DNA of 64,000 bases from Clostridia bacterium (lineage in GTDB: Bacteria; Bacillota; Clostridia; Oscillospirales; CAG-272), in assembly GCA_017463485.1 (NCBI GenBank), contig JAFTPD010000002.1:65229-129228 (forward strand). Reading direction: 5' to 3'. The translations under genes were made by a program, and so were the position numbers. Below the pieces are notes generated by a model that had not been told where the DNA came from, searched no databases, and was given only the letters and a program-made list of their open reading frames with translations. Each line of letters starts with the position of its first letter. Within the stretch, counting starts at the first letter, position 1. Positions 13,185 to 50,665 of the stretch are shown in pieces.

Positions 13185-13835
13185 TTACAGCTTGGATTGA
13201 AAGGCCACAGCACGTCCGATAATTTTGATGCTTTCAAGCTCGTGGCCTATAAATACGAGCGGCTCGTACTTTGGGTTTTCGGGAGTCAGCACAAGCTTGG
13301 ATTGCTCGGGATAGTAGTAGACTCGCTTGAGCGTCGCCTCGTCCCCGATAATTACTGCCGCGATCTCGCCGTTGTCAACTGTTTCCGCTTGCTTGATGTA
13401 TACTATATCGCCGTCATATATTCTTGCACCCGTCATGCTGTCGCCCTTGGCTGTAAGACAGAAATCGGCATTGATGTCCGCGCCGCTGACGTATTCGCTC
13501 CAGTCTTGATCTGCAATTATAGGCATTCCGCAGGCAATGTCGCCAAGCACGGGATAGGAGGAAGTTCCTATCGTAGAAATGTTGTCAGGAATGTGGAGGG
13601 TAGGGGAGGTGGTGCGCTCCATTGCTACGTCGCCGCCCATCAGCCACGCCTCGGAGACGTCCAGCGCCTCGGCAATAAGGCACAAGGCCTTGGGCTTTGC
13701 CTCGTAGACACCGTTGGTGTATTGACTGATGCGAGCCTTTGAAAGTCCTGTCAGCCGCGACAGCTCCGCCGCCTTGATACCTCTCGACACCATTGCCGCG
13801 TTGAGTCGGTCCTTAAAGCTTCTGCTTGTTTCCAT
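13185..13835 (-). CDS. CI/LexA-like repressor (XRE HTH + S24 peptidase)
   Basis: HTH (IKAAELSRLTGLSKARISQYTNG). S24 catalytic motifs GDSM (Ser) and ATLKRV (Lys). Start at Met after AAAGGAAA. Confidence 0.88.
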   Translation of the reverse strand: METSRSFKDRLNAAMVSRGIKAAELSRLTGLSKARISQYTNGVYEAKPKALCLIAEALDVSEAWLMGGDVAMERTTSPTLHIPDNISTIGTSSYPVLGDIACGMPIIADQDWSEYVSGADINADFCLTAKGDSMTGARIYDGDIVYIKQAETVDNGEIAAVIIGDEATLKRVYYYPEQSKLVLTPENPKYEPLVFIGHELESIKIIGRAVAFQSKL

Positions 13836-13954
13836 AGTGATATTTCCTTTCAAAAGGTAAAATTTCGCATGGTAGTATGGCTTTATTATAAACCAAAGTT
13901 AAGCTTCTGTCAAGAGGTTTTGATAAAAAAGTTAAGGAAATGTCAAAATGGGGG

Positions 13955-13984
13955 TTGACAAGGGCAAGGATGGTGTGGTATACT
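13955..13984 (+). promoter_or_regulatory. early/lytic promoter of the island
   Basis: TTGACA (13955-13960), 18-nt spacer, TGgTATACT extended -10 (13976-13984). Faces away from the repressor gene. Confidence 0.6.
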
Positions 13985-13991
13985 ATCGGCA

Positions 13992-14007
13992 GTTAAGCGA
14001 ACTTAAC
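13992..14007. promoter_or_regulatory. operator palindrome O1
   Basis: GTTAAGcgaaCTTAAC, a perfect 6+4+6 palindrome immediately downstream of the -10. Confidence 0.55.
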
Positions 14008-14073
14008 TTTGACTTGCATTTAAAAAGATGCGCTCCTGTTGCAAGTCGGGAGCGTAAAATTTTTACCTATTTA

Positions 14074-14089
14074 GTTAAGCAAACTTAAT
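14074..14089. promoter_or_regulatory. operator palindrome O2
   Basis: GTTAAGcaaaCTTAAt, a near copy of O1 82 bp downstream. GTTAAG half-sites also at 13898 and 13931. Confidence 0.5.
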
Positions 14090-14168
14090 TTGAAGGAAGG
14101 CAGGGTGGGAAGAAAGGTCAAAATATGAGCTATACGATATACGTTATCAGAAGAAAGGAAGTACTAAA

Positions 14169-14444
14169 ATGCAGGAGAAAAACAATTCCGTAGGGGCGAG
14201 CGAGCCCATGCGGGCTATCGGAATGTGCCCTTATTTTCAGAGGGAGAGAGGAAACGGACTTGTGTATTGCGAATGTGCAAAATTCCGTTTTCCCGATAAG
14301 ATCTCGCGCCGTGAGATCGTTTACAGATTTTGCGCGCACCCCGAAAATTACAAGGCTTGCGTGATCAAGCAGACGATGGACCACTTCTACGAGCGCAAGT
14401 ATAATCAGATAGAAGGCGGACAGAGAGGAGTGTCCAATGGCTGA
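14169..14444 (+). CDS. hypothetical Cys-rich phage protein (91 aa)
   Basis: First ORF after the promoter. Five Cys residues (MCPYF..YCEC..FC..AC) suggest a zinc-binding fold. No family recognised. Confidence 0.55.
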   Translation: MQEKNNSVGASEPMRAIGMCPYFQRERGNGLVYCECAKFRFPDKISRREIVYRFCAHPENYKACVIKQTMDHFYERKYNQIEGGQRGVSNG

Positions 14445-14697
14445 GAGAAAACGCAAGACGGGTAGCGACTGCCTGAGCGATGTCAAAGCCTACGAGGAGC
14501 TGCTCCGCGTATACGGCGCGTGGCTTGGATATCTGTTGTCGCGTCTTGGTGAGGGCGAGCTTCGCGTTGATGTGTCCGAGATATCGAAAGGACTTGACGC
14601 CGCTTGCGTGAGCGCGTGGCGAGAGGGTGACGAATACGTCATCCGTGTGGATAAAAAGGATGTGGCTGACAATGGCGGAGAAAAAAAGGGGACTTGA
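14437..14697 (+). CDS. hypothetical phage protein (86 aa)
   Basis: ORF overlapping the neighbours by 8 nt and 26 nt. No motif recognised. Confidence 0.45.
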   Translation: MAERKRKTGSDCLSDVKAYEELLRVYGAWLGYLLSRLGEGELRVDVSEISKGLDAACVSAWREGDEYVIRVDKKDVADNGGEKKGT

Positions 14698-15058
14698 ATT
14701 TATTCCGTCGGATGTCGCCGCAGATGACGCAAGACGCAGTCGCCGCGTTGAGGATTCCATCTATAAGCGCGCACGCGGATATAAGGTAGCCGTCAAAAAG
14801 ACTTACAAGGTCAAGCGCGTAGAATACGATCCCGATACGGGTAAGAAAACGTCGGAGCGGGAGGAGCTGGCGACGGGCATTGACGAGGTACATATTCCCG
14901 CCGACGTCCGCGCAGGGGAGTATTGGCTCAAAAACCGTTCCCCCGAGCGTTGGAGTGAGCATCCCGCAGTACCCGACGCGGATGACGGTGATGATGGCGT
15001 GGGGATAATTCTGCTCCCCGACGTAGAGGCGTCTGACGGAGGAAAAAATGAAGCCTGA
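14672..15058 (+). CDS. terminase small subunit
   Basis: Position before TerL and the C-terminal motif PADVRAGEYWLKNRSPERW, typical of small terminases. Start at internal ATG (MAEKKRG). Confidence 0.7.
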   Translation: MAEKKRGLEFIPSDVAADDARRSRRVEDSIYKRARGYKVAVKKTYKVKRVEYDPDTGKKTSEREELATGIDEVHIPADVRAGEYWLKNRSPERWSEHPAVPDADDGDDGVGIILLPDVEASDGGKNEA

Positions 15059-16496
15059 CAAGGTGATCTGGTCGCCACAGCCCAAGCAGAGGATATTTAT
15101 GAGTCGGTGGGAGGACGAGGCACTGTACGGAGGTGCGGCGGGCGGAGGAAAGAGCGATTGCGCCATAGTTGAAGCCTTGCGGCAGGTAAACGTGCCGCAC
15201 TATCACGGGCTGATACTCCGCAAGACCTATCCGCAGCTCTCCGACATTATCAGCCGCTCCCACGAGCTGTACTCTCGCGCATTTCCCGAGGCAAGGTATA
15301 ACGACTCAAAGCACGTGTGGACTTTCCCAAGCGGCGCGAAGATATATTTCGGCTCGCTGCAGCACGCCTCAGACCGTTTCAATTATCAAGGCAAGAGATA
15401 CGACTTTATCGACTTTGACGAGCTGACGCAGTTTACAGCGGACGAGTATACGTACCTCTTTTCGCGAAACCGTCCAAACGGCCCCGGTACGCGGTGCTAT
15501 ATAAGGGCGCAGGCAAACCCCGGCGGTATCGGACACGGCTGGGTAAAGGCTCGGTTTATAACTCCCGCGCCTCCCATGACTACGATATGGGAGGACGTCA
15601 AGGTGCGCTTTCCTGATGGACGCGAGGAAAACCGCCGCCGTTCAAGGATCTTTGTGCCGTCCACCGTGTTTGACAATCAGAAGCTGCTGGAAAACGACCC
15701 CGAATATCTCACAAGCCTTGCGGCACTGCCCGAGGCAGAGAGAAACGCACTGCTTTACGGCAACTGGGACAGCTTTTCGGGGCAGGTCTTTACCGAGTGG
15801 CGCAACGATCCCGATCATTACCGTGACCGTGTGAACACTCACGTTATAGAGCCGTTTGCCATTCCCGAGAATTGGACGGTGTGGCGCGGATTTGACTGGG
15901 GATATACCCGCCCGTTTTCGGTGGGGTGGTACGCAGTGGACTGCGACCGACGGCTTTACCGCATCCGCGAGCTGTACGGCTGTGCGGCAGACTCAAACGG
16001 AAACGCTATCGCCAACCGCGGCGTTATGTGGACGGCTGACCGTGTGGCAAAGGAGATCCGCCGCATTGAAGCAGAGGACGTAAATCTGCGCGGCAGACAT
16101 ATTCACGGAATATGCGATCCAGCGGTGTTTGCCAGAAACGGCGGCGAGAGCATTGGCGAGATAATGGAACGCTCCGGCGTTTACTTCGACAAGGCTGACA
16201 ATACCCGAATCGCGGGCAAAAATCAGATACACAACCGCCTTGCTTTTGACGAATACGGCGTGCCTATGCTGTACGTCTTTTCGACCTGCAAGCACTTTAT
16301 CCGCACCGTACCCGAGCTTGTATACAGTCAGACCGACGTGGAGGATATCGACACCGACGGCGAGGATCACATCTATGACGAATTGAGATACATGTGCATG
16401 GAAAACCCCGTGGCGGCGCGAGAGGATAAAAGAAAGGAAAGTCTGTGTGAGCCGCCGCAATATATGCCGTATCTCGTGCGGCACGAATATTGTTGA
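15048..16496 (+). CDS. terminase large subunit
   Basis: Walker A (YGGAAGGGKSD), Walker B-like (FIDFDELTQF), C-terminal nuclease region (DTDGEDHIYDELRY). Confidence 0.9.
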   Translation: MKPDKVIWSPQPKQRIFMSRWEDEALYGGAAGGGKSDCAIVEALRQVNVPHYHGLILRKTYPQLSDIISRSHELYSRAFPEARYNDSKHVWTFPSGAKIYFGSLQHASDRFNYQGKRYDFIDFDELTQFTADEYTYLFSRNRPNGPGTRCYIRAQANPGGIGHGWVKARFITPAPPMTTIWEDVKVRFPDGREENRRRSRIFVPSTVFDNQKLLENDPEYLTSLAALPEAERNALLYGNWDSFSGQVFTEWRNDPDHYRDRVNTHVIEPFAIPENWTVWRGFDWGYTRPFSVGWYAVDCDRRLYRIRELYGCAADSNGNAIANRGVMWTADRVAKEIRRIEAEDVNLRGRHIHGICDPAVFARNGGESIGEIMERSGVYFDKADNTRIAGKNQIHNRLAFDEYGVPMLYVFSTCKHFIRTVPELVYSQTDVEDIDTDGEDHIYDELRYMCMENPVAAREDKRKESLCEPPQYMPYLVRHEYC

Positions 16497-16529
16497 CAGA
16501 AAAAAGAATTCGGAGGCAGGGTGGGAATT

Positions 16530-18146
16530 ATGAGGAATGGAGAAAATATGAGAAAAACAGAAACAGAAGGCTATGAAAATACCTGTGCCATAGGCAAGGT
16601 AGAGCTTCGGGAGGCGCTGGAGCTTTTGCAATCCTACAAGGAGGCAAAGCGGCGTACCGACGAGCGTATATGGGATGAGATGCAGTGGTGGCAGAAGCGC
16701 CACGACATCAAAGCTGCGGCAAGTGTCAGCGGGGTGCGTCCCGTGTCGGCGTGGCTGTTCAACAGCGTTTGCAACAAGCATGCGGATATGTGCGACAATA
16801 TCCCCGTCGCAAAGGCACTGCCCCGTGAAATGGGGGACGAGATGGCGGCGGATATGCTGTCCAAGATACTCCCCGTGATCTGCGAGAGATGCGGATTTGA
16901 AAAGACCTATTCGGACAATGCGTGGTACAAGCTGCGCCACGGAATGAGCGCGTGGGGCGTGTTCTGGAATTCACGGCTTGAAAATGGGCTTGGCGATATT
17001 GATATATGTCGTATGGACGTTATGGATATCTTCTGGGACGTGAGTGTTGCCGACATTCAGGACAGCCGCGGACTTTTTATCATCTCTGCCGATACTGCGG
17101 AGGGTGTGAGGAGCGCATATCCTCATTTCAAGGGCGAGTATAGGGACGGAGAGCGCGGCGACAGGGTAGAGGTCATTGACTGGTACTACAAGCGCCGCAT
17201 GCCCGACGGACGAAGTCTGCTTCACTATGCGAAAATATGCGGTGATGAGCTGCTTTACTCGTCCGAAAACGACCCTATGTTTGCAGATCGCGGCTGGTAC
17301 GAGCACGGAATGTACCCCGTGGTGCTGGACGTGCTTTTCCCCGACGTGAGTGGTAGCACGGGCTACGGATTCCTTGCTGTGGGCAGAAATCCGCAGGGCT
17401 ATATCGACGAGCTGGACGGCAATATTCTTGAATATGCCAACACCGTCAGCCGCGCAAGATACTGGGCAAAGCGCTCTCTTGGCATCAACGAGCGCGATTT
17501 CCTCAATCCCGATAAGCGTATTATCGAGGTGGAGGGAGATATCGACGACGAAAAGCTCCGTCAGATAAAGGTAGAGCCTATCGACTCAACGCTGACGTCC
17601 ATCCGCACTATGAAGATAGACGAGCTGAAGGAAACCACGGGCAACCGCGACGTGTCGCAGGGAAGCACCTCGGGAGGCGTTACTGCGGCATCTGCTATCG
17701 TTGCCCTGCAGGAGTCGGGCAATAAAGGAAGCCGCGACGTGATAATGGGAACTTACCGCGCCTACGTTTCGGTGATCACTCTCGTTATCGAGCTTATCCG
17801 CGAGTTTTACGACGGAGAGAGATGCTTCCGCATCTGCGGCGACGGCAGTAAGGCTAACCCCTATCAGTATCTGAACTATACCAACCGCGATCTCAAAACG
17901 GTGACGGTGGGCGTGGGTGCTGACGGCGAGGCGTTGTATTACCGTCCCGTATTTGATATCGAGGTCAAGGCAGAGCGCCGCGACCCTCTGACCCAAAGCG
18001 CGAGAAATCAGCTCATACTTCAGCTCTACGAGGCGGGAATGTTCGATCCCGAAAACAGCGCCGCCGCGTCGGTAGCCCTTGAATGTATGGATTTTGACGG
18101 AATCGACGCCGCCCGCGCGATGGTGCGTACTGGGGTACAGGTATGA
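16530..18146 (+). CDS. portal protein
   Basis: About 540 aa, directly after TerL, with a size and composition typical of portals. Exact start uncertain (GTG 16521, ATG 16530 or ATG 16548). Confidence 0.75.
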   Translation: MRNGENMRKTETEGYENTCAIGKVELREALELLQSYKEAKRRTDERIWDEMQWWQKRHDIKAAASVSGVRPVSAWLFNSVCNKHADMCDNIPVAKALPREMGDEMAADMLSKILPVICERCGFEKTYSDNAWYKLRHGMSAWGVFWNSRLENGLGDIDICRMDVMDIFWDVSVADIQDSRGLFIISADTAEGVRSAYPHFKGEYRDGERGDRVEVIDWYYKRRMPDGRSLLHYAKICGDELLYSSENDPMFADRGWYEHGMYPVVLDVLFPDVSGSTGYGFLAVGRNPQGYIDELDGNILEYANTVSRARYWAKRSLGINERDFLNPDKRIIEVEGDIDDEKLRQIKVEPIDSTLTSIRTMKIDELKETTGNRDVSQGSTSGGVTAASAIVALQESGNKGSRDVIMGTYRAYVSVITLVIELIREFYDGERCFRICGDGSKANPYQYLNYTNRDLKTVTVGVGADGEALYYRPVFDIEVKAERRDPLTQSARNQLILQLYEAGMFDPENSAAASVALECMDFDGIDAARAMVRTGVQV

Positions 18147-18448
18147 TAGACGTAAGCTATGCGGTAAACGCCGAGAGCGGAAAATGCCAAATTGAAGCGT
18201 GCGGTCACGCAGGCTGTGCCGAGCGCGGAGGAGACGTTATCTGCGCGGGAGTGTCCGCGCTCCTGTACGGATTTCTGTACTACCTCTCCGAAAAGCACGG
18301 CTCAAGTCTTGTGTGGCACGAGAGCGACGACAGCCTTTTTATGTGCTTCCCGTCGGAGAGCGCGGAGGCACTTGAGGTGATAACGGCATCTCTCAGACTT
18401 ATGTCGGACACCTATCCCGAATACGTTAGCTTGCAAGAAGGAAGGTAA
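18143..18448 (+). CDS. Prp-like (DUF464) cysteine protease, phage-encoded
   Basis: GHAGCAERGGDVICAGVSAL matches the Prp His/Cys catalytic dyad motif. Compare host Prp at 55679 (GHTGYGEEGGDVLCAAISAM). ATGA overlap with the portal gene. Confidence 0.8.
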   Translation: MIDVSYAVNAESGKCQIEACGHAGCAERGGDVICAGVSALLYGFLYYLSEKHGSSLVWHESDDSLFMCFPSESAEALEVITASLRLMSDTYPEYVSLQEGR

Positions 18449-18451
18449 AAT

Positions 18452-18928
18452 ATGGAACAAATCACAGAAACCGAAATCATAACGGAAAACGAACAGACAG
18501 AGCCGACCGCAGAGTCGACACTTGAGGTAACGGAGACGGAGGAGGTCATCAGTCAGCCGACAGAGCCGCAGACGCAGGGTATTGATATGGAGGAATTTAC
18601 CCGTTCACTCCTTGATGCTTACCCCGACGCAGACGTCGCTGACGAAAGACTGCTCGCCTACGCCGAAGGTCGCGAGCGACTCAGTGCCGTTGACCTTTAC
18701 CGAGCTTTGAATTTTGACAGCCTTGTGGCAAAGGCGGCAAACGCCGCCGCGCTGGAAGCCGAATCAAAGCTTATCGCACATATCCGTCTTTGCGGAATTC
18801 GCCCCGCAGAGAACGGAACAGACAGACAAAAGGGAGGAAAGAAAACCCCTCCCGTGGCAAGGCTCAGCCGCGCCGAGCGAGCAAAAATTGCCGCAAGAGC
18901 AGGTCGCGGAGAGCGCATTGAATTTTAA
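18452..18928 (+). CDS. putative scaffolding protein
   Basis: Highly acidic N-terminus, Ala-rich helical middle, basic C-terminus. Sits between the protease and the capsid gene. Confidence 0.6.
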   Translation: MEQITETEIITENEQTEPTAESTLEVTETEEVISQPTEPQTQGIDMEEFTRSLLDAYPDADVADERLLAYAEGRERLSAVDLYRALNFDSLVAKAANAAALEAESKLIAHIRLCGIRPAENGTDRQKGGKKTPPVARLSRAERAKIAARAGRGERIEF

Positions 18929-18946
18929 AAAAGAAAGGACAAAAAA

Positions 18947-20221
18947 ATGAACAACACAAACCTTTATATCGGCAAGGACTACATTCAGCATTTTGCTTCG
19001 GGTGAGCGTGTAATGGGAACTGCGGGCGTGTCCAATAACAACGCCGCTACCGTAACCCCTTACGAGGGCGAAGGACTTTCTGCCGAGATGAGAACCTATT
19101 ACAGCGACTATCTTATCGATAACGCAGAGCCTTATCTGGTGCACGATCTGTTCGCACAGAAGCACCGCATCCCCACGGGCGGCGGTAAGACTATCTCCTT
19201 CCGCAAGTACGATCCGCTGCCCAAGCGCACCTCTCCCATTGTAGAGGGCGTTACCCCTGACGGTCAGGATTTCCACGTTAGCGTAGTGGAGGCAACCGTT
19301 TCCCAGTACGGCGGATATATCGAGCTTACCGACCTACTTCTCATGACGGCGGTTGATAACAACCTCTGCATGGCAACCAAGCTGCTCGGTGCGCAGGCAG
19401 GACGTACCCTTGACACCATCTCGCGCGAGGTGCTTTCAGGCGGTACAAACGTTCAGTACGGCGAGAACGCCGTATCTGCGCGTCATCTGCTGGTGGGAGG
19501 CAAGGAGAGCGGCAACCATTACCTTACCGTTGACTGTATCCGCCGCGCGGTAAGATTCCTCAAGAGTCAGAATGCTGAGAAGATCGACGGCTCTTACGTG
19601 GCAATCATCCACCCCGACTGCACCTACGACCTTATGAACGATCCCAACTGGAAAACGCCCAATCAGTACGCCGATAGCAAGCGTATCTTCGAGGGCGAAA
19701 TCGGCAAGATCGAGGGCGTGCGCTTTATCGAGTCCAGCGAAGCCAAGATCTTCCACGCAGAGGATCTTTATGAAGGTCAGCGCACAGTCCCTGTTACCAA
19801 CGGCACAGCAGACGGAGGTCTTTATCTGCAGGGCAACACATTGCCTGACAGATGGATTATCGTTAACGGCAAACGCGTATATTACAGCGCGTCAAAGTGC
19901 TACACCGATTCCACCAAACAGAATACCGTCGATATGAGTGGAGCCAAAGTAAACGATATCGTCTATCCTGGTGAAGCAGGTGCAGAGGGCCGCGATGTAT
20001 ATTCCACCCTTATCATCGCGGATAACGCATACGGTACAACCGAAATTTCGGGGGGCGGACTTGAGCATATCGTAAAGCAACTCGGTAGCGCAGGAACGTC
20101 CGACCCGCTCAATCAGAGAGCAACCGTCGGTTGGAAGGCGTCCAAGGTCACTACTCGTCTTGTAGAGGCGTTTATGGTGAGAATCGAGACCACCTCCACC
20201 TTCGAATCGGGCAACAACTGA
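18947..20221 (+). CDS. major capsid protein (N4-gp56-like family)
   Basis: 424 aa. ISFRKYDPLP..EGVTPDG..VSQYGGYIELTDLL..LLGAQAGRTLD matches my memory of the N4-gp56 capsid family. N-terminal IQHF-AS motif. Confidence 0.8.
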   Translation: MNNTNLYIGKDYIQHFASGERVMGTAGVSNNNAATVTPYEGEGLSAEMRTYYSDYLIDNAEPYLVHDLFAQKHRIPTGGGKTISFRKYDPLPKRTSPIVEGVTPDGQDFHVSVVEATVSQYGGYIELTDLLLMTAVDNNLCMATKLLGAQAGRTLDTISREVLSGGTNVQYGENAVSARHLLVGGKESGNHYLTVDCIRRAVRFLKSQNAEKIDGSYVAIIHPDCTYDLMNDPNWKTPNQYADSKRIFEGEIGKIEGVRFIESSEAKIFHAEDLYEGQRTVPVTNGTADGGLYLQGNTLPDRWIIVNGKRVYYSASKCYTDSTKQNTVDMSGAKVNDIVYPGEAGAEGRDVYSTLIIADNAYGTTEISGGGLEHIVKQLGSAGTSDPLNQRATVGWKASKVTTRLVEAFMVRIETTSTFESGNN

Positions 20222-20277
20222 TAATTTATAAACACCCCGCCCTCGGGCGGGGGAGAGATAAAGAAAGGAAAAAGAAT

Positions 20278-20562
20278 ATGAGTACGAATACCGAAAATAA
20301 AAACAAGACCGTTTCCACTCCCGAGGACTACCTTGAGGAGCTGGTTTCCATAAAGCTTTTCCGCGACGGCGGACGTTATCGCGACAACGTGTACGTTGCT
20401 GTCAACGGACAGAACTGCATCATCAAGCGCGGTGAATGGGTAAAGGTAAAGCGCAAGTTTGCCATGGTGCTTGACGCCTCCGAAATTCAGGATATGAAGA
20501 CCGCGCAGATGATCGAAGCCGAGGAGAAAAAGTTCCAAACTGCCGAATCCAAGCTCGCCTGA
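20278..20562 (+). CDS. hypothetical phage head-associated protein (94 aa)
   Basis: ATG after AAAGGAAAAAG, inside listed ORF 20131..20562. No family recognised. Confidence 0.55.
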   Translation: MSTNTENKNKTVSTPEDYLEELVSIKLFRDGGRYRDNVYVAVNGQNCIIKRGEWVKVKRKFAMVLDASEIQDMKTAQMIEAEEKKFQTAESKLA

Positions 20563-20580
20563 CGGAGCGGGGGTGAGTTT

Positions 20581-20919
20581 ATGACTATCGGTAAATGTAT
20601 CGGCATAGCCGAAACCATAGCGCCCAACAAGATCGACAGAGAGCTGAAGCTCCGTTGGCTCAGCGAGCTTGAGGGCAAGATAGCCGTAGAGCTTTTCGAC
20701 GCTATGCCGGAGGAGCTGAACGAGTACAGCGCCGAGTGTGAGGACGGGGTGCAGCTTTACGTCCCGTTTCCGTTTGACCAGATATACTGGATGTACCTCG
20801 TGGCAATGCTTGACCTTGCCAATGGGGACAACGCAAGATACGGAAATTCCGCAGGCGCGTTCAATTCCGCCTTTGAGAGCTACGCCAAATGGGTATTGCG
20901 CAACGGAGTGACGAGGTAA
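20581..20919 (+). CDS. hypothetical phage protein (112 aa), possible head-tail connector
   Basis: Position after the capsid gene. No motif recognised. Confidence 0.5.
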   Translation: MTIGKCIGIAETIAPNKIDRELKLRWLSELEGKIAVELFDAMPEELNEYSAECEDGVQLYVPFPFDQIYWMYLVAMLDLANGDNARYGNSAGAFNSAFESYAKWVLRNGVTR

Positions 20920-20923
20920 GCCC

Positions 20924-21067
20924 ATGGACGTTCAGAAAATAACGCTCACCTCGGGCAGATTTATTCCTTCCCGCTCGGAGGACCTTGAAAAAAGGATAGA
21001 CGAGCTTGAAAAATATCTCATGCTGCTTACCGAAGAGCTTGAAAAGCGTTCAGATAACACACAGTAA
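20924..21067 (+). CDS. small coiled-coil ORF (47 aa)
   Basis: My own translation: MDVQKITLTSGRFIPSRSEDLEKRIDELEKYLMLLTEELEKRSDNTQ. It fills the gap between plus-strand phage genes and is below the ORF-track size cut-off. Confidence 0.35.
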   Translation: MDVQKITLTSGRFIPSRSEDLEKRIDELEKYLMLLTEELEKRSDNTQ

Positions 21068-21091
21068 GCAAAGAGGAAAGGAGAATGAGTA

Positions 21092-22666
21092 ATGTCAGGT
21101 AAAACAGCGGTATCCCTACCTTTGGGAATAGCCAAAGACTCAAACGTCAAAAAAAGGACGCAGACAAAATTCGGCGGACTTTGCCGCGAGAGAATGGCGA
21201 GCGGTGAGGACATCAGCTATATGCTCAATACGACGTGCTGTGATCATCCGAGAATATCCGCGCGAGAGAGGAGAAGGCTGTCCTCTGCGAGTGCCGTGGC
21301 GGGAAGCACGTCGTATACCGTCGCAGTGTCGGATAAGGTATACGTAGTCGAGGGCGACAAGCTCTACATTTCTGAAAACGGTGCACGTACCGAATGCTGT
21401 ACTCTGTCATCCGAATCGGATAAAAAGATAATCTGCTACGGTAACGACCTTGTGATCCTGCCCGATTATATCCATTATCAGTCGCCCTTTGGATATACTA
21501 AAAGTATGCGTATTTCAACAGACGTTATCAAAGCAACAATAAGCGGCAACTCGCTTGTTGCAGAGTCCGTCGATTTTGAGGATATTGGCTTCAGAATGGG
21601 CGACGGTGTAACAGTTACCTCAGTGGCAAGCACGCTGTCCAGTCATGTGTTCACGGTAAACTCTACCGTTTATTACGTAGACGGAAACACCTTGCTTATA
21701 GACGGAGTTTTTCCGAGCGACGGGGAATATGCGATTCGCGTAAGACGTGACATACCCTCACTTACCCACGCCGTATGCTGGGGCGAGCGAATGTACGGCA
21801 CGTCGGGAAGCAACGTCAACATTTCGGAAGAAGGAAATATCTATAACTGGAAAGGGAAAAGGGGACTTGACAGCGACCCCGTGACTATGCCGTCAGTCTC
21901 CGTCGGCAGCTTTACCGCTTGCGCCGAATGGAACGGTTATATTGTCTTTTTTAAGGAAGGCTCGATATGCAAGCTGCTTGGCAATAAGGCGTCAAGCTAC
22001 GTGTTGTCAGAGGTAACGGCGCCGGGTATTCCCGAGGGTGGACATAAAACGCTTGTTTCTCTCGGCGGCGCGCTCTACTACTGCGGCACAATGGGAGTTT
22101 ATAAGTACGACGGTACGCATCCCAAGCGGATAGATCAGGGCGCGCTTCCCGACGGCTTGAAGGCGACGGCAGCCGCCACTGACGGAGAAAGATATTATCT
22201 TGCGGCAAACGGTAAAGTGTACGTTTACGACCCCGTGCGACAACTATGGAGCGCAGAATCGGGCGCGGCTATCGTCAGTATGGCAGGCAGAGCGGGCGAG
22301 GTATATATGTTGACGTCGGGCGGATTGCTGTTTGCGTCGGGCGATACGGCAGAGGGCGGACTTGAGGACGCGACCGACGCATGGCTGTCCTTTGGATACG
22401 ACGACGGAGGCGCGGCAGAAAAGAAATCCCTCCTATCATTGAGTTTAACCGTCCGATTGGGAGAGGGAGCTGACCTCGAGGTGCTCGCAGAATTCGACGA
22501 GGACGGCGAGCAGGTGCTTGTCGGAAACAGCAGAGGACGTGGCGCGTGGGAAAATCTCACCTATATGTGTCCGCCCAATATCTGCGGTGGATTCCGAATA
22601 CATCTTCATGCCCGCGGTAGCTTTACGCTCGCGTCGCTGACGCGCAATTACCGCATCATAAGCTGA
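21092..22666 (+). CDS. 524-aa beta-rich phage structural protein of unknown role
   Basis: GAGGAAAGGAGA RBS. Recurrent G-x-hydrophobic-Y motifs (KVYVVEGDKLYI, GALYYCGTMGVYKYDG, GERYYLAANGKVYVYD, GEVYMLTSGGLLFA) suggest a propeller or beta-sandwich. Confidence 0.6.
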   Translation: MSGKTAVSLPLGIAKDSNVKKRTQTKFGGLCRERMASGEDISYMLNTTCCDHPRISARERRRLSSASAVAGSTSYTVAVSDKVYVVEGDKLYISENGARTECCTLSSESDKKIICYGNDLVILPDYIHYQSPFGYTKSMRISTDVIKATISGNSLVAESVDFEDIGFRMGDGVTVTSVASTLSSHVFTVNSTVYYVDGNTLLIDGVFPSDGEYAIRVRRDIPSLTHAVCWGERMYGTSGSNVNISEEGNIYNWKGKRGLDSDPVTMPSVSVGSFTACAEWNGYIVFFKEGSICKLLGNKASSYVLSEVTAPGIPEGGHKTLVSLGGALYYCGTMGVYKYDGTHPKRIDQGALPDGLKATAAATDGERYYLAANGKVYVYDPVRQLWSAESGAAIVSMAGRAGEVYMLTSGGLLFASGDTAEGGLEDATDAWLSFGYDDGGAAEKKSLLSLSLTVRLGEGADLEVLAEFDEDGEQVLVGNSRGRGAWENLTYMCPPNICGGFRIHLHARGSFTLASLTRNYRIIS

Positions 22667-22688
22667 AGCACGCACAGGAGGAACAGAC

Positions 22689-23009
22689 ATGAATTCGCAC
22701 GACGGACCGAGAGGGTACAATCATCATTCGATCGACAGAGAATATTCCGCCGAGCTTTGCGACGAGCGACACGACAGGCTGGATTTTGATATCCGCCATG
22801 TGGAGGAAAAGCTTGAAAAGCTGGAGATCTGCACCGTAAAGCTGACGGATATGATCGAGCGGCACGATAAAATGATAGACGCCCAGCAGGAAAAGATAAG
22901 CACCCTTGAAAAGCATCCGGGGGCACAGCTTCAAAAGATACTGTGGTATGCCATCAGCGCCGTGGCAGGCGCTCTGGCGGTTGCCCTTACGGATCATATC
23001 GCGCTTTGA
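22689..23009 (+). CDS. XhlA-like membrane protein (lysis-associated)
   Basis: N-terminal coiled coil (HVEEKLEKLEICTVKLTDMIERHDKMIDAQQEKISTLEK) and a single C-terminal TM (ILWYAISAVAGALAVAL), as in XhlA-family proteins. Confidence 0.6.
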   Translation: MNSHDGPRGYNHHSIDREYSAELCDERHDRLDFDIRHVEEKLEKLEICTVKLTDMIERHDKMIDAQQEKISTLEKHPGAQLQKILWYAISAVAGALAVALTDHIAL

Positions 23010-23067
23010 CGCACAAAGCCCCGTATCGCGGAAATCTCTGCGGTACGGGGCTGAAAGAGCAGCTTTG

Positions 23068-23136
23068 CGGAGTGAAATCCGCCTGCGGCGGATTATCGTT
23101 GCTTTTCGCTTTGCGAAAAGCGTCATTTCATTGAAA
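23068..23136. repeat. copy A, 5' module of the two-copy intergenic element
   Basis: GGAGTGAAAT + hairpin + ATTATCGTTGCTTTTCGCTTTGCGAAAAGCGTCATTTCATTGAAA. Matches 28170-28312. Confidence 0.7.
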
Positions 23137-23269
23137 CGGGCGACCGCAGGTCGCCCCTACGGTATAAAAATCTTTGCCTGAAAACTACTGAAAGCATCTT
23201 ATTTTCCACGTAGGGGCGAATTGCTTGCTCCTCCCGCTACGGAAAAATTTTTGATTTTACACGTATAAC

Positions 23270-23406
23270 GGACAGTCGGGGACGCCTGTCCCTACAATTT
23301 TGAAAAGATTTTCGTTATTGAATAACAGAAAGGCAATATAAACCTTTTGGTGTTAAAACAACGAAAAATTCTAATCATTTGTAGGGACAGGCGTCCCCGA
23401 CTGTCC
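23270..23406. repeat. MITE-like unit bounded by a perfect 28-bp inverted repeat
   Basis: GGACAGTCGGGGACGCCTGTCCCTACAA (23270-23297) and its exact reverse complement (23379-23406) flank 81 AT-rich nt. The core recurs at 43795. Confidence 0.7.
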
Positions 23407-23488
23407 GGAACATCGAATAAATTATAGAGATGGTCTTGACCGTTTGGCGCGGTTAAAAGAATAAACAATAAATAATAAATAATAAATA

Positions 23489-23647
23489 CCACAGTGGGTA
23501 AGGGTCCCACGGGGGTTATAGAGATGGTTTTTGTTGTCATCATACGAAACAAATCCAAACCAAAAAATACTTCAAGCAAGTTCTTTGGGATCAAACCCTT
23601 TCTCGAAAGAAAGGGTTTGCAGGGCGCGGGACAGAGTCCCGCATATA
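23489..23647. repeat. copy A, 3' module of the two-copy intergenic element
   Basis: Collinear with 28315-28468. Three hairpins at 23494-23510, 23592-23619 and 23626-23642. Confidence 0.7.
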
Positions 23648-23661
23648 CTAAAAATCATACA

Positions 23662-23692
23662 ATAAAAATCAAGGGCTTCTAACGAAGCCCCT
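23662..23692 (-). terminator. typA terminator
   Basis: GGGCTTC-taac-GAAGCCC, followed on the minus strand by TTGATTTTTATT. Confidence 0.65.
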
Positions 23693-23699
23693 TCATTGT

Positions 23700-28169: not shown

Positions 28170-28468
28170 CGGAGTGAAATCGTGCTTCACACGGTGAAAT
28201 CACTTTGTGATGGAATTCGTCCTTCGGACGAGTGAAATGCGCCGTGCAGATTTTCTGCACGGCGCATTATCGTTGCTTTTTGCGTGGCGAAAAGCGTCCA
28301 TTTTCAATTAAATATCACAGTGGGTAAGGTACCCACGGGGGTTATAGAGACGGCTCTTGTTGTAACCATCTAAACAAATTTAAACAAAAACAAATTGCTG
28401 TAAAGTTCTTTGATCCAAACTTTCTTTCAAGAAAGTTTGGTGGGGTGTGGGGCAAAGCCCCACATATA
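28170..28468. repeat. copy B (uninterrupted) of the two-copy intergenic element
   Basis: Fills the whole DUF378-rarA gap. GTGAAAT-hairpin units (28174-28265), then ATTATCGTTGC... (28266-28312), then the three-hairpin module (28315-28468). Confidence 0.7.
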
Positions 28469-35773: not shown

Positions 35774-36523
35774 ATGTATAAGAGCAAGGGACTGCGAATA
35801 GTCGGATACGTCCTCAAGACAATCTGCCTTGTGTTGATATTCGGCACTATCGGAATACTTCTGTGGCGCATATTCTCGTCGGGCGACCCTGCAAGCATGA
35901 ATCGCGTGCAGGTCAATGACGAGCTTCGCGCGGCTTACGACGAGCACGGCGAGGATCTGACTATGTATTGGCTGGAGCTTGATGAAACCACCAGCGTAGT
36001 CAATAAAAACTACGGCTATTTCAGCGTTACGCGCGCACTGTTTATAGAGGAAGCAGAGCAGGTGCAGGTCACGTTCAGATACAACAACAGCACCATAAAG
36101 CACCTCAAGGAGGACTACGGACTCAGCGAAATGCCATCTCGCGACGAGGAGCTTTATGACGTCAGCCTGGTGGTAGCCTACGACCTGACCCCCGACGATA
36201 CCTCGGATAATCTGAAAAGCGAGGAGGGAAGCGTTGAGCTTGTCCGATACTATCCTACCTCGTCAGAAAGCGATAAAAAGAACGTATACAATTATCGCAA
36301 GCTGGTCTTTGACGGCGTAAATATGAACGCATCCCCCAATCGGGTGCTTGCGGTCTATGTGGATATCTACTACAATAAGGACATCAACTACGACAAGGAT
36401 TCCTACGGTACGCTGTGCGTTTACGATTACATTACAGAGGAAAAATACGGCAGAAAGGATTTTGAGTTTTCTGCCGAGGACATAAAGGCTCTCAAGGCGT
36501 ATACGCCTAAAATCAAGGAGTAA
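35774..36523 (+). CDS. membrane-anchored hypothetical protein (249 aa)
   Basis: Single N-terminal TM (IVGYVLKTICLVLIFGTIGILLW), then a soluble domain. No family recognised. Confidence 0.6.
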   Translation: MYKSKGLRIVGYVLKTICLVLIFGTIGILLWRIFSSGDPASMNRVQVNDELRAAYDEHGEDLTMYWLELDETTSVVNKNYGYFSVTRALFIEEAEQVQVTFRYNNSTIKHLKEDYGLSEMPSRDEELYDVSLVVAYDLTPDDTSDNLKSEEGSVELVRYYPTSSESDKKNVYNYRKLVFDGVNMNASPNRVLAVYVDIYYNKDINYDKDSYGTLCVYDYITEEKYGRKDFEFSAEDIKALKAYTPKIKE

Positions 36524-36549
36524 ACGTCCTTTGAAAAGAGGTGAGAGGT

Positions 36550-39500
36550 ATGACTATCATCAAAAAGCGATCGAGCGGTAATATAAATACCGCCGCAGAC
36601 GACAGAATAGGGTTCCTGCAGGAGCGCGTGCTGTCACGCAAGGGAATAATAGGCTGCTCAAACGGATACACCGTCGCCCGATATGAAAACGGAAAGATCT
36701 TCTACGCGGGCGAGAACAGATGGGGACAGGAGGAATGTACCGGATGGACGGACGTTATCAGCATCTCCGTCGCCCATGAGTACGTGCTTGGACTTTTGTC
36801 CGACGGAACTGTCCGCGCGGCAGGCTACGATTCTCACGGACAGCTTCAGATAAGCCGCTTTTCCTGCGCGCGCAGTGTGTCTGCGGGACGCTACCATTCT
36901 GCGGCTATCATACAGAACGGACGCGTGGTATGTGCAGGAGATAACAGCCATGGTCAGTGTGATACCTCCGAGTGGGAGGACGTGTGTGACGTTGTTTGCG
37001 GCAATGATTTCACTCTGGGACTTACGCAAAACGGAAAGGTTCTGTACGCGGGTGGCAGTCGCGCCATGCGAGCAAGATTTTCCCGTTGGGAGAAGATCGC
37101 GGGACTTTTTGCCGACGTTTCGGGCGAGCGGATATACGGTATCCGCGCTGACGGAACGGTGGTGTCAAATGCCTACCTTCCCGCTGAGGTAAAGAAATGG
37201 AAGAACCTTGTGTATCTTTCAGTCGCCGATGGAGTTTATGCCGGAATCACCCTTGGTGGAACTGTCAACGTCCATGGGAATGGCGACCTTGAAAAAATAC
37301 TGTCAAATAAGGCAGAGGAGTTCGTCACCGTGTCTATGTCGGGCGAGCACTCCGCCGCTGTCAACAGCACAGGACAGATATTGACCGTGGGGGACAATCA
37401 CTTCGGTCAGTGCGATACACGTCACCAAAAGCCGCTGTTTGACGACTTTACGGAGCTGTGCGCCAATATGCAGGCGGCTCGCCGCCGTCGCCGTCAGCGC
37501 GAGCTTGAATATAAAAAGCGTGAGTGCGAGGCGGAAAGATTTTCCCGCCGTATGGCTTGCAGTGAGAGAATAAGCGTGGGTATCTCCGCCATGGGCAGAG
37601 TTTATACCACGGGTAGCTTCAAGGACGTGAAATCATGGTCGGACGTTACCACCATAAGCTGTGGCAACGCACACATCCTCGCCCTTCATTCGGACGGAAC
37701 GGTCAGTGCGTCCGGAAACAATGTAGAGGGCTGTACTGCCGTGTCCGAATGGCGCGGTATAGTTGAGATACTTGCGGGTAAATATCACTCGCTTGCTCTT
37801 ACCTCGGACGGCAGAGTGCTTTTTACGGGACAGAATTACAATAATCAGGGCGACGTGAGCTCTTGGAGCGGTATCAAGCATATTTTCGGAACGGATACCT
37901 ATACTCTCGGATTGCGTGTCGATGGCAGTGTGATATCTGCTGGACGCGGACTCCCATGCTCTCGCGACGTGCTTGAGGGCGACGAATGGAAAAATATCAT
38001 TCATATAGTCCCCACTGACAGTCATATCGCCGCATTGCGCGCCGACGGTACGGTAGTCACTGCGGGTAACGCTTCGTATATGAGCCGTTTTACGGGATGC
38101 ACCAACGATTGGCAGGGGGTCAAATCCATAGCCGCAGGGAACGGCTTTACCGCAGGACTTTGCTACGGCGGCAGAGTGCTTGCTGTGGGTGAGAATGCCT
38201 TCGGTCAGTGTGATACTCAAAATTGGAGTAACGTTGTGCGCATATCAGCAGGACGCACGTCGCTTGTCGGACTTTGCGCCGACGGCAAGGTCTATTCTGC
38301 GGGCGCTCAACGCATAAGCGCAGAGCAGGCAAGTCGAATGTTCGATTCTCCCAATCTTATACGAGGGGAGAGGCAGGGAGTCAATTATCTTCGCTGTAAT
38401 ACCGATATGCTGTCGGATATCGTGGCGATAACGTGCGCCCCCGAGCATACCCTTGCCATTGATAAGGGAGGACAGATGTTTGCGCTCGGACTTGACGGCG
38501 ACGGTCAGTGCGCGGTGTCCGCGTTCACAATGTTCAGTAACATATCCCAGTACGATAAGGGCGTGGGCTATTATAAGAGCCGCGCTCACGAGCAAGAAAT
38601 ACTTGTGAGTGATGAAAATACCGCCGAGGCTGACAGCGCTGACACAGCACACGGCGAGATAAAGAGAACGGCACACGAAAATCTTATTTACGATTCAAAT
38701 AGATATACGAGCATGATCGCGGGCGGCGACGACCACGTTACCGTGGCAGACGACGAGGGAAACGTGCGCTCTTACTCATTCTCGGGCGGCGTGATCATTA
38801 CAGAGCCGTTGACGGGTAAAAGACCGATAAAGGTAGTTGCAGGCAAGGCGCACAGCGCAGTGCTTTACGAAAACGGCGACGTGCGCTTGCGTGAATCCTT
38901 TGATTCGCAGCTCAATCCTGCAATGGTGCTTCCTCCGTGGTATAATTCCGTCGGACTTGTAAAGGCTGTTGATATCTGCGCGGGTGACAGACATACCGCA
39001 GTATTGCTGGAGGACGGCACTGTCAGAGCTATGGGAAGCAATAAATTCGGTCAGTGTGACGTGTCTGCTCTGACGGGCATAAAAGCTCTTGGCGCAGGCT
39101 CGGCGCATACGGCGGGACTTACGGAGAGCGGCGAGGTGATCGCAGTCGGCTCTAAAAATCGCGAGATCGCGATAAAGGCGCGCTCTGTGGCTCACGCTCC
39201 CGTTTGGAATCCTTGCCAGACACAGAGATGGAGTGACGTTGCAAGCATTGAATGTACTGCCGATATCACCCTCGGTATCAAGAACGACGGCGACGTGCTG
39301 GCGGTTGGAGGCAATAACTTCGGTCAGTGCCGCACTGGATTTTGGCATAACGTTATCGACGTTAAAACCTCGGGCAGGCATACCGCCGCTTTGCGTGCCG
39401 ACGGTCGCGTGGAGGCTATCGGATGCAACGAGCGCGGAGAATGTAATACCTCCGAATGGAAAAACATCATAATGCTCGCCCTGCGCAGCGGTGTAACCTA

Positions 39501-43794: not shown

Positions 43795-43820
43795 CCGGAC
43801 AGGCGTCCCCGACTGTCCGG
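43795..43820. repeat. third copy of the GGACAGGCGTCCCCGACTGTCC core
   Basis: CCGGACAGGCGTCCCCGACTGTCCGG, identical core to 23384-23406. Flanked by TTTTTAC / GTAAAAA. Confidence 0.6.
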
Positions 43821-43874
43821 ATGATGTAAAAACAAACCACAAACCATTTTGTTATACAATAACCCTCAAATCGC

Positions 43875-48419: not shown

Positions 48420-48541
48420 AATGTTTTCCTTTCTTTGGGGTGTGATTTGTGCCTGTGTACGACGCCATTATAAACTTTAACGTAAGGTCAAAGTCAAGGG
48501 CTTCTATAAAAATTTTTGAAAAAATTCAATTTTGTACGCAA

Positions 48542-48564
48542 GGCGGCTGTGTCACACAGCCGCC
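48542..48564 (-). terminator. PEPCK terminator hairpin
   Basis: GGCGGCTGTG-tca-CACAGCCGCC downstream of the stop at 48591. Confidence 0.5.
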
Positions 48565-48590
48565 AAAGCTGTAGCTCAATTATTTGTCAG

Positions 48591-50396: not shown

Positions 50397-50665
50397 GGGT
50401 TTCTCCTTATTTGATATTATTTTTTGACTTATTGATGTCGGAGTCGGAGGAAAAGTCACAACAGTGCTGTCAATCCTACTCCACCATATATTTTACAGCA
50501 TTTTTTGCAAATTTGCAATAGTTATTTTTAAAGGTTACGAATTGTTAACATACTGCACAAATTCAAGTCAATAAGTTTGTTGAAATTTTTTGCCGAGTTT
50601 TAAGAAAAAAGTCATAAAAGTATGGTACAATGTAGAGGTAACGAAATTTGACGCTTGGAGTTAAC

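Follow-up and report, generated by a model that had tools for sequence, protein, structure and literature searches.

A chromosomal island of about 9.8 kb (positions 13185-23009) was analyzed within a 64-kb stretch of contig JAFTPD010000002.1 from a Clostridia bacterium, and this whole stretch is called the window. The island is probably the main structural operon of a podovirus-derived gene transfer agent (GTA) related to FpGTA of Faecalibacterium prausnitzii, fixed in the chromosome of a gut member of the Oscillospiraceae/Clostridia. The list of open reading frames (ORFs) shows a divergent repressor gene followed by a tightly packed operon on the plus strand. An earlier reading made from the letters of this DNA, called the original prediction here, had given ORFs and coordinates that all match the list. 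The homology, the gene content, the conservation and the regulatory motifs described below are direct observations.

FpGTA is a podovirus-like GTA of F. prausnitzii (Borodovich et al., Nat Commun 2026, PMC12946183; preprint 2024). Its operon I is about 10.5 kb long, and its ten ORFs encode TerS, TerL, portal, scaffold, capsid and conserved hypothetical proteins related to those of short-tailed phages. Operon II, 5.5 kb long and located about 125 kb away, carries genes for fibers (BppU-like fiber, upper fiber), a sialidase-like receptor-binding protein, an SGNH anchor, holin and endolysin; in 7 of 12 F. prausnitzii strains this operon was not detected. The capsids are about 40 nm with no visible tails, and the packaged DNA is 8.4-8.9 kb long and apparently random chromosomal DNA. 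Homologs were reported in Faecalibacterium only, no repressor was described, transfer to recipients is still unproven, and a comparison with PBSX was drawn by the authors (PMC12946183).

The link between the island and FpGTA was made through Faecalibacterium accessions in the same capsid-protein cluster and through the locus architecture. Related loci are cited by L numbers. The capsid protein of contig MT836159 (L087), obtained from human-fecal virus-like particles, is identical to the multispecies Faecalibacterium N4-gp56 protein ATP00716.1/EEU97359.1. The Faecalibacterium locus (L089-L091; e.g., CP082235.1) holds ten ORFs in about 10 kb between an M16 peptidase and an ABC transporter. Their order is a 94-aa protein, TerL, portal, a 317-aa Prp-scaffold fusion, a 332-aa capsid protein, and proteins of 70, 127, 623, 67 and 421 aa. 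This is the architecture published for FpGTA operon I.

Eight products of the window are collinear with the Faecalibacterium locus L090 at 28-62% identity by blastp. The identity is 62% for TerL, 39% for the portal and 48-52% for the capsid protein. The Prp-like protease matches the N-terminal part of the Prp-scaffold fusion (30%), and the scaffold matches its C-terminal part (28%). The small protein s1 matches the 70-aa protein (45%), s2 matches the 127-aa protein (34%), and the tail nozzle matches the 623-aa protein (31%). The PDB homolog given for FpGTA protein RCH50846.1 is 8eap (PMC12946183). The window nozzle also matches 8eap, which supports the homology with FpGTA. A domesticated, GTA-like module was one of the options in the original prediction, and this option is upheld by the collinearity with FpGTA operon I, the recurrence in multiple species and the purifying selection.

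The two loci are alike in being about 10 kb long, in lying among housekeeping genes of the chromosome without replication or integration genes, and in belonging to the host order Oscillospirales (GTDB). They differ in regulation and in several gene products. The window has a divergent S24 repressor with operators and the small genes o91 and o86. The Faecalibacterium locus offers no counterpart of the repressor, o91, o86 or the XhlA-like gene at the end of the island. In the window, Prp and scaffold are two genes, whereas they are fused in Faecalibacterium. The capsid protein has 424 aa in the window versus 332 aa, and the nozzle has 524 aa versus 623 aa. The window operon ends with the XhlA-like ORF, whereas FpGTA ends with the 67-aa protein and the 421-aa protein, which is TolA-like and abundant in virions. 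A different arrangement was seen in L084 (MT835662, [Eubacterium] siraeum), in which head genes, nozzle, a 594-aa tail protein, holin and endolysin are contiguous in about 12.5 kb. This one-block layout suggests that the split into two loci, as in Faecalibacterium, is lineage-specific.

The island ORFs were scanned against Pfam, PHROG and NCBIfam profiles. TerS is encoded at 14627-15058 (phrog_309, 1.4e-10, residues 39-113) and TerL at 15048-16496 (Terminase_6N; phrog_979, 7e-59). The portal at 16521-18146 is of the P22/podovirus type (PF16510, P22_portal; phrog_156, 8e-61). The Prp-like cysteine protease lies at 18143-18448 (PF04327, Peptidase_Prp, 4e-12), followed by the scaffolding protein at 18452-18928, which was identified by its position between the portal/Prp and capsid genes and by a C-terminal match to phrog_13908. 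The major capsid protein at 18947-20221 has 424 aa and belongs to the N4-gp56 family (TIGR04387, 273 bits with a cut-off of 60; phrog_1357). These genes and all the later ones of the operon are on the plus strand. TerS and TerL overlap by 11 nt, and portal and Prp overlap in ATGA, as read from the coordinates. The original prediction had named TerS, TerL, portal, a Prp-like protease and an N4-gp56 capsid protein in intact, translationally coupled ORFs; the phrog_309, Terminase_6N, P22_portal, Peptidase_Prp and TIGR04387 matches and the two overlaps agree with it.

The 524-aa product of 21092-22666 changes the description of the island. Profile search against PDB sequences gave noise alone for this protein, and a fold search was needed; a partial match to phrog_511 was found. 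The AlphaFold2 model, built on a 14-sequence alignment, has a pLDDT of 89.9 and a pTM of 0.87 and shows a beta-propeller fold. In the Foldseek search against PDB, the top 27 matches are all chains of phage tail or portal-tail complex entries, including P22 gp10 (8eap_D, E 1.9e-14), T7 gp12 (7boy_s), Pa223, Kp9, PhiM1, HRP29 and the Sf6 entry 7sg7. A podovirus tail nozzle (hub) with the P22 gp10/T7 gp12 fold is a high-confidence prediction for this protein.

Three small ORFs separate the capsid gene from the nozzle gene. The s1 protein (20278-20562; phrog_15239) is conserved and virion-associated, and it is a candidate for head completion or for the neck. The s2 protein (20581-20919; phrog_12105), also conserved, is a candidate portal adaptor, judged by its position; the s2 gene directly precedes the nozzle gene in true phages. 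The third ORF, s3 (20923-21066), encodes a 47-aa coiled coil that is conserved in some group A loci, and its status as a gene is doubtful. The portal, the s1/s2 neck candidates and the nozzle indicate that the island encodes the axial core of a short tail and is not head-only. This core comes without fibers, a needle or lysis enzymes. The original prediction, which had seen packaging and head genes without recognizable tail genes and had described the 524-aa product as a beta-rich protein, was mistaken on this point. The structure search that it had suggested for the unassigned products succeeded for the nozzle through Foldseek; for the first operon gene, o91, the model was too poor, and profile searches of o91, s1 and s2 against PDB sequences gave no match.

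The last ORF of the operon (22689-23009) encodes a small XhlA/hemolysin-like coiled-coil protein with a hydrophobic C-terminus. The earlier label "XhlA-like" stands in part: the hemolysin families phrog_937 (4e-6) and phrog_1193 (1.6e-3) were matched, and a Pfam XhlA match was not obtained. The gene follows the nozzle gene in group B and in some other loci, and a lysis accessory is a possible role for its product.

The cassette was found to be widespread. A one-genome-per-species collection was scanned, 176 matches were confirmed, and the best 80 were fetched and mapped. The gene maps of the related loci rest on tblastn; simple ORF calls often gave antisense ORFs. The hosts of the mapped cassettes are metagenome-assembled genomes (MAGs) of gut Oscillospiraceae, Clostridia and Eubacteriales from humans and herbivores, and at least about 170 genomes of gut Clostridia, counted at species level, carry a cassette of this type. 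Databases list more than 8,000 relatives of the capsid protein, with an identity plateau near 73%. A near-universal order was seen in the mapped loci by tblastn and clustering: repressor on the opposite strand, o91, o86, TerS, TerL, portal, Prp, scaffold, capsid and s1. Downstream of s1, many mapped loci continue with s2, s3, nozzle and the XhlA-like gene. No integrase, replication or fiber module was found beside the cassette in the 80 mapped loci.

The flanking genes differ between clades, and the position of the cassette is conserved within clades. In the window, the left flank consists of VTC, DUF4956 and amidohydrolase genes and the right flank of typA and class-I lysS, all housekeeping genes. 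This VTC-typA site is common only to L002 (Oscillospiraceae SIG628; capsid protein 94% identical). A comparison of this interval across relatives had been proposed with the original prediction; the same gene set was recovered in the 80 mapped loci, and the site itself only in L002. On the long contigs L082 and L083, labeled by Pfam, the left flank holds an LRR_5 protein and then acetyltransferase, CNNM and DXP synthase, and the right flank holds rhamnosidase, DUF4349, permease and V-ATPase. In other clades the cassette adjoins sigma factor, FtsZ, RadC and Ffh genes, and in further clades it adjoins glycerol kinase or a protein that was taken, on inspection by eye, for a GH36 alpha-galactosidase. 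A free element of about 11-12 kb was considered, as many related contigs are 10-13 kb long; none has terminal overlaps, and longer contigs run into host genes, so this candidate was rejected.

Several loci carry proteins with leucine-rich repeats (LRR) of the BspA type. LRR_5 proteins of 235-340 aa lie left of the repressor in L005, L011, L013, L014, L082 and L083, and those of 950-1700 aa directly follow s1 in L040, L048 and L056. These adjoining proteins could be unrelated surface proteins or receptor-binding parts. One MAG, fecal_MAG_145, holds a typical cassette and a more phage-like second copy (L011 and L051). In the second copy, portal and nozzle are larger and the o91-like ORFs are duplicated; it also encodes a protein with WDGH and crAss001_48 domains. 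A related TerL-portal-capsid cluster was also seen in Dialister sp. (L086, MT836150; Negativicutes), and relatives of the module thus occur beyond Clostridia.

Selection was measured by comparing the island genes with those of L002, which was another check proposed with the original prediction. The dN/dS values are 0.025-0.29 at dS of 0.16-0.57, and the flanking housekeeping genes have dS of 0.30-0.40. The individual dN/dS values are 0.025 for TerL, 0.047 for the portal, 0.055 for the capsid protein, 0.06 for o91, 0.07 for the repressor, 0.165 for the nozzle, 0.22 for o86 and 0.29 for the scaffold. The only ORF off the purifying pattern is s3, with dN/dS above 1 over 41 codons. The degree of conservation of TerL matches that of FtsZ. 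In clades sharing flanks, the divergence of the cassette tracks the divergence of the flanks with Spearman coefficients of 0.4-0.95, although the pairs are not independent and the values are supportive rather than a formal test. From these comparisons, the cassette appears to be under purifying selection and vertically inherited rather than spreading autonomously. Purifying selection, co-divergence with the flanks and recurrence favor a cassette maintained in the chromosome over the long term and make the recent truncation of a prophage unlikely.

In IMG/VR, relatives whose capsid protein is at least 60% identical are short fragments of the cassette, and those at 54-60% are phage contigs with lengths of 36-43 kb. 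The latter, podophages of about 40 kb (L120-L171), share TerL (65-70%), portal, scaffold, capsid (54-60%), s1, s2 and nozzle with the island. They differ in having 4-6 kb of extra genes between s1 and s2, and in lacking Prp and a nearby S24 repressor. RecT, a replication initiator and the nozzle are encoded on one of them, L125, together with a 798-aa tail fiber beside a reverse transcriptase. The reverse transcriptase (14303-15706) next to the tail fiber probably represents a diversity-generating retroelement. Among cultured phages, podophages of Bacillus megaterium with genomes of about 40 kb come nearest; one example is Page, whose capsid protein is about 36-47% identical. An intact temperate prophage was rejected for the island, in which the complete integration, replication, tail-fiber and lysis set was not found, whereas true phage relatives carry such genes. 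A recently truncated prophage, the other option in the original prediction, is contradicted as well: relatives with at least 60% capsid identity all have the same reduced gene set, and full-length phages of about 40 kb appear only at 54-60%.

The regulatory region was then read from the repressor toward the operon. The CI/LexA-type repressor (13185-13853, minus strand; 222 aa) contains helix-turn-helix (HTH) and S24 peptidase domains (Pfam HTH_3, 4e-10; Peptidase_S24, 4e-23). Its score against the NCBIfam LexA equivalog TIGR00498 is 79 bits and misses the cut-off of 111, which indicates a dedicated regulator and not the host LexA. The translation contains the motifs IAC-GMP, GDSM and TLKR, with a UmuD-like Cys108-Gly109 site, Ser139 in GDSM and Lys176 in TLKR; the serine and the lysine are spaced by 37 residues. 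Among 41 homologs, (A/S)CGxP and TLKR are kept in all 41 and GDSM in 40. The repressor is predicted from these residues to cleave itself at Cys108-Gly109 with Ser139/Lys176 as the catalytic pair.

Two divergent promoter-like sites and two palindromes lie between the repressor gene and o91. The site for the repressor gene (13885-13913, minus strand) reads TTGACA-17-TATAAT and matches the consensus at 12 of 12 positions. A GTTAAG half-site at 13898-13903 adjoins its -35 hexamer (13908-13913). The site for the operon (13955-13984, plus strand) reads TTGACA-18-TATACT with the TG of an extended -10. The putative operator O1 at 13992-14007, directly downstream of the operon -10 hexamer, is the perfect palindrome GTTAAGcgaaCTTAAC. 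The putative operator O2 at 14074-14089 is GTTAAGcaaaCTTAAT with one mismatch. O1 and O2 are the sole copies of GTTAAGcgaaCTTAAC with at most one mismatch in the 64 kb. The repressor facing a near-consensus promoter with GTTAAG-N4-CTTAAC operators, as originally described, is confirmed by the Pfam domains and by the positions of the promoters and palindromes.

The palindrome GTTAAG-N4-CTTAAC is kept in the spacer between the repressor and o91 in at least 10 loci (L002, L006, L013, L014, L038, L043, L047, L055, L067 and L081). The repressors of the loci that keep it are 51-62% identical to the window repressor. This recurrence beside repressors of just 51-62% identity indicates that the palindrome is not due to chance. 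This conservation between loci gives comparative support to the proposed binding of the repressor to these operators and to its proposed cleavage under activated RecA. A terminator-like hairpin with a T-run (14029-14065, plus strand) is found in the 5' leader of the operon between O1 and O2. From this strong hairpin, a further level of control such as attenuation or antitermination may be suspected. Group D loci (L059-L078) lack the S24 repressor; its place next to glycerol kinase is taken, on the opposite strand, by a 129-aa HTH protein (XRE) together with a 171-aa protein that is conserved. This pair may be an alternative switch similar to ImmR/ImmA.

The first operon gene, o91 (14169-14444), encodes a small protein of 91 aa rich in Cys and His. 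Alignments show C20, C34, C36, C55, H57 and C64 to be invariant. The family members are 70-120 aa long, share the pattern CPY...CEC...FPD..RR..Y..C.HP...C and include 327 representatives at 50% identity. Where the contig includes the 5' end of the cassette, o91 is in most cases the first gene of the operon. Profile searches in Pfam, PHROG and NCBIfam gave no match for o91, and among 50,697 phage records no match was found for o91 by tblastn or for the island by megablast. The AlphaFold2 model of o91 is poor (pLDDT 54, 33-sequence alignment), and no fold search was made on it. A few phage contigs of about 31-36 kb (L133, L134) contain weak copies of o91, about 32% identical, at a distance of 3 kb upstream of TerS. 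The second gene, o86 (14437-14697), encodes a small protein conserved in groups A-C, with no Pfam, PHROG or NCBIfam match.

The Prp protein of Staphylococcus aureus cuts ribosomal protein L27 and the capsid and scaffold proteins of phage 80alpha after a ...LQFF/A motif (the slash marks the cut), with a His22/Cys34 catalytic pair. The Prp-like protease of the cassette has His22 and Cys34 and keeps the arrangement GH22A...IC34AGVS. The capsid protein of the window begins with MNNTNLYIGKDYIQHF followed by ASGE and contains the Prp-type motif IQHF/ASGE. The motif [LI]-[QH]-x-F-[AG] is nearly invariant at the capsid N-terminus throughout the family, including Faecalibacterium (IQLF/AE). From these motifs, we infer that the cassette Prp is a predicted capsid maturation protease that trims about 16 N-terminal residues. 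Relative to the FpGTA capsid protein, that of the window has an insertion of about 60-90 aa around residues 270-328 (424 versus 332 aa). Intermediate capsid lengths were seen in E. siraeum (375 aa) and in another member of the Oscillospiraceae (404 aa). The insertion is possibly an extra surface domain affecting the size or stability of the capsid.

A working model can be drawn from these parts. Its steps of induction, packaging specificity, capsid size, lysis and transfer are proposed by analogy with the prototype in Faecalibacterium and from what is generally known about S24 repressors and about packaging by the headful. The HTH-S24 repressor would bind the GTTAAG-N4-CTTAAC operators, which lie over and downstream of the promoter of the operon and also adjoin that of the repressor itself. 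Upon DNA damage, activated RecA would lead to self-cleavage of the repressor at Cys108-Gly109, and the operon would be derepressed. Procapsids would form on the portal with the help of the scaffold, and the Prp-like protease would cut about 16 residues from the capsid N-terminus at IQHF/A. The terminase would then fill the small heads with chromosomal DNA in headful mode; the size seen in Faecalibacterium, 8.4-8.9 kb, is below that of the 9.8-kb island. The s1/s2 proteins and the nozzle would close the portal. A second locus outside the window, comparable to FpGTA operon II, would supply the fibers or receptor-binding proteins as well as holin/endolysin, and the XhlA-like protein may assist lysis.

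Several points weigh against the assignment to an FpGTA-type GTA. No similarity between TerS and the 94-aa TerS of FpGTA was detectable by blastp. A locus resembling operon II, with fibers, receptor-binding protein, holin and endolysin, was not found in the scanned parts of the 64-kb window. The capsid insertion is absent from FpGTA, and capsid size and capacity may differ for this reason. FpGTA operon I has no adjacent repressor, o91 or o86, so the proposed regulation would be without experimental precedent in the family. The chromosomal site differs between clades, which fits old rearrangements and is also compatible with past mobility. Finally, particle production, DNA content and transfer would all be carried over from Faecalibacterium, where transfer to recipients has not been shown.

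Among the alternatives is a phage-like particle that does not transfer genes. The products would be DNA-filled capsids without delivery that serve stress lysis or the release of DNA and cytoplasm in a PBSX-like manner, or that have no purpose. The FpGTA paper leaves room for such a particle, as transfer was not shown, tails were not visible and the comparison with PBSX was made (PMC12946183). No fiber or receptor-binding gene was found in the island or in the scanned parts of the window, and the SOS-type control together with the lysis-associated XhlA-like gene would fit a lysis programme triggered by damage. However, the strong purifying selection on terminase, portal and nozzle across species suggests that packaging and an exit channel matter. 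The nozzle diverges fast, as host-contact parts do, with 25-56% identity versus about 73% for the capsid protein, and a podovirus stub has no contractile killing device. A particle without transfer is considered unlikely on this balance, although it is the strongest of the alternatives.

A variant of the GTA reading is more doubtful still. Here the genome would contain no fibers belonging to the cassette, and complete, DNA-filled heads ending in a stub of adaptor and nozzle would take up fibers of co-resident podophages of about 40 kb, whose s2 and nozzle proteins are homologous, or would use the adjoining BspA-type LRR proteins. If true, borrowed fibers would determine the host range of this immobile GTA of the chromosome, making it a podovirus counterpart of the tail-stealing cf-PICIs (chromosomal islands that are phage-inducible and form capsids).

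A capsid-forming phage satellite would make its own heads and nozzle, obtain fibers and lysis from a helper podophage and package itself. The size of about 9.8 kb is near the capacity of a small capsid, TerS is present, and the repressor could react to a helper. The same habitats contain true podophages of about 40 kb whose s2 and nozzle are homologous, and one MAG has both a cassette and a phage-like relative (L011, L051). Nevertheless, integrase, excisionase, primase/replication genes and att repeats were found neither here nor in the 80 loci. The flanks co-diverge with the cassette, its position is conserved within clades, and the contigs are without terminal overlaps. In Faecalibacterium, the packaged DNA is random chromosomal DNA (PMC12946183). 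A satellite is very improbable in view of these results.

An inactive relic, that is, an unused prophage remnant that happens to retain head genes, is equally hard to defend. It would account for the integrase, replication, fiber and endolysin genes not found in the island and for the dN/dS above 1 of s3, whereas all the other ORFs are intact and translationally coupled with dN/dS of 0.025-0.29 at flank-like dS, the same gene set recurs across the roughly 80 species examined, along with conserved operators and catalytic motifs of the repressor, and the Faecalibacterium homolog makes particles (PMC12946183). Several independent results contradict the relic reading, and the same holds for the satellite reading.

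The FpGTA-type reading can be set beside three known systems. PBSX of Bacillus subtilis is an SOS-inducible defective prophage with a divergent repressor acting on repeated late-promoter operators and an XhlA-type lysis accessory. The island resembles it as a chromosomal, phage-derived and putatively SOS-inducible particle producer in Firmicutes with a divergent repressor, repeated operators and an XhlA-like gene. PBSX differs in its size of about 28 kb, its myovirus-like, full contractile tail, its own holin and amidase, its Xre repressor without S24 and its unrelated structural genes. RcGTA of Alphaproteobacteria is likewise a domesticated head and packaging cluster with vertical inheritance, purifying selection, accessory genes elsewhere and a capacity below the length of the locus. 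In contrast, RcGTA is siphovirus-like, with HK97-type genes, a tape measure and control by CtrA/GafA and quorum sensing, and no sequence relationship was seen.

The cf-PICIs are small chromosomal islands with their own terminase, portal, protease and capsid and no complete tail, as in the window. They carry integrase, AlpA, replication genes and att sites, package themselves and use the siphovirus tails of helpers, whereas the window island has none of these features and has its own podovirus nozzle. Satellite or cf-PICI features, namely an integrase, excision control, a replication module and att repeats, were not found in the island or in the 80 related loci. The comparison with cf-PICIs in the original prediction fails on integrase, replication genes and att sites.

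The kind of element represented by FpGTA is already known. Compared with PMC12946183, the breadth across gut Clostridia, the conserved repressor-operator module and the o91 family appear to be new. GTA-like packaging of 4-10 kb of host DNA was reported in many uncultured Oscillospirales and Christensenellales, and the responsible genes were not found (PMC12946183). The loci of the present family are candidates for these packaging events. The repressor and the conserved operator in most lineages, together with the Cys-rich first gene, offer a testable handle on how a GTA is switched on in gut commensals. Family cassettes have been deposited as "Bacteriophage sp." or as IMG/VR viral contigs (L087, L084, L088, L092-L119). 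These deposits indicate that virus-prediction pipelines count the cassettes as phages. The gene set can serve as a marker to separate GTA cassettes from prophages in virome and MAG annotation, where virus predictors call them viral.

The surroundings of the island were covered by the 64-kb window, in which the large ORFs beyond the island were scanned across 28.5-57.5 kb. Maf, MreB, PBP2, RuvX, Spo0A, Suf, NrdDG, TrxB, TruB and similar genes were identified. The remaining large ORFs scanned are housekeeping genes, except for 35774-36523, 46713-48419 (minus strand) and 48516-50414, which have no family match. Integrase, replication, fiber and endolysin genes were found neither in the island by Pfam, PHROG and NCBIfam nor in the scanned 28.5-57.5 kb. 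The window contains no tRNA gene and no Rfam match. Direct repeats resembling att sites around the island are limited to short, low-identity pairs, none longer than expected by chance. The absence of integrase, replication genes, endolysin and att-like direct repeats from the island had been stated at the outset, and the profile scans and repeat search agree.

Two of the unmatched ORFs, 46713-48419 (minus strand) and 48516-50414, encode proteins of 568 and 632 aa with no credible family match and no tie to the island. A 1371-aa protein with RCC1 repeats is encoded at 36541-40656, also with no tie to the island. The gap before typA (23010-23699), described earlier as filled with repeats, contains inverted and dispersed short repeats and includes an inverted repeat with 65-nt arms at 23269-23407. 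In L002, the VTC-typA gap holds a gene for a 446-aa multi-pass membrane protein instead of repeats. The short repeats of the window gap are copied in two other intergenic regions, at 28260-28390 and 43797-43821.

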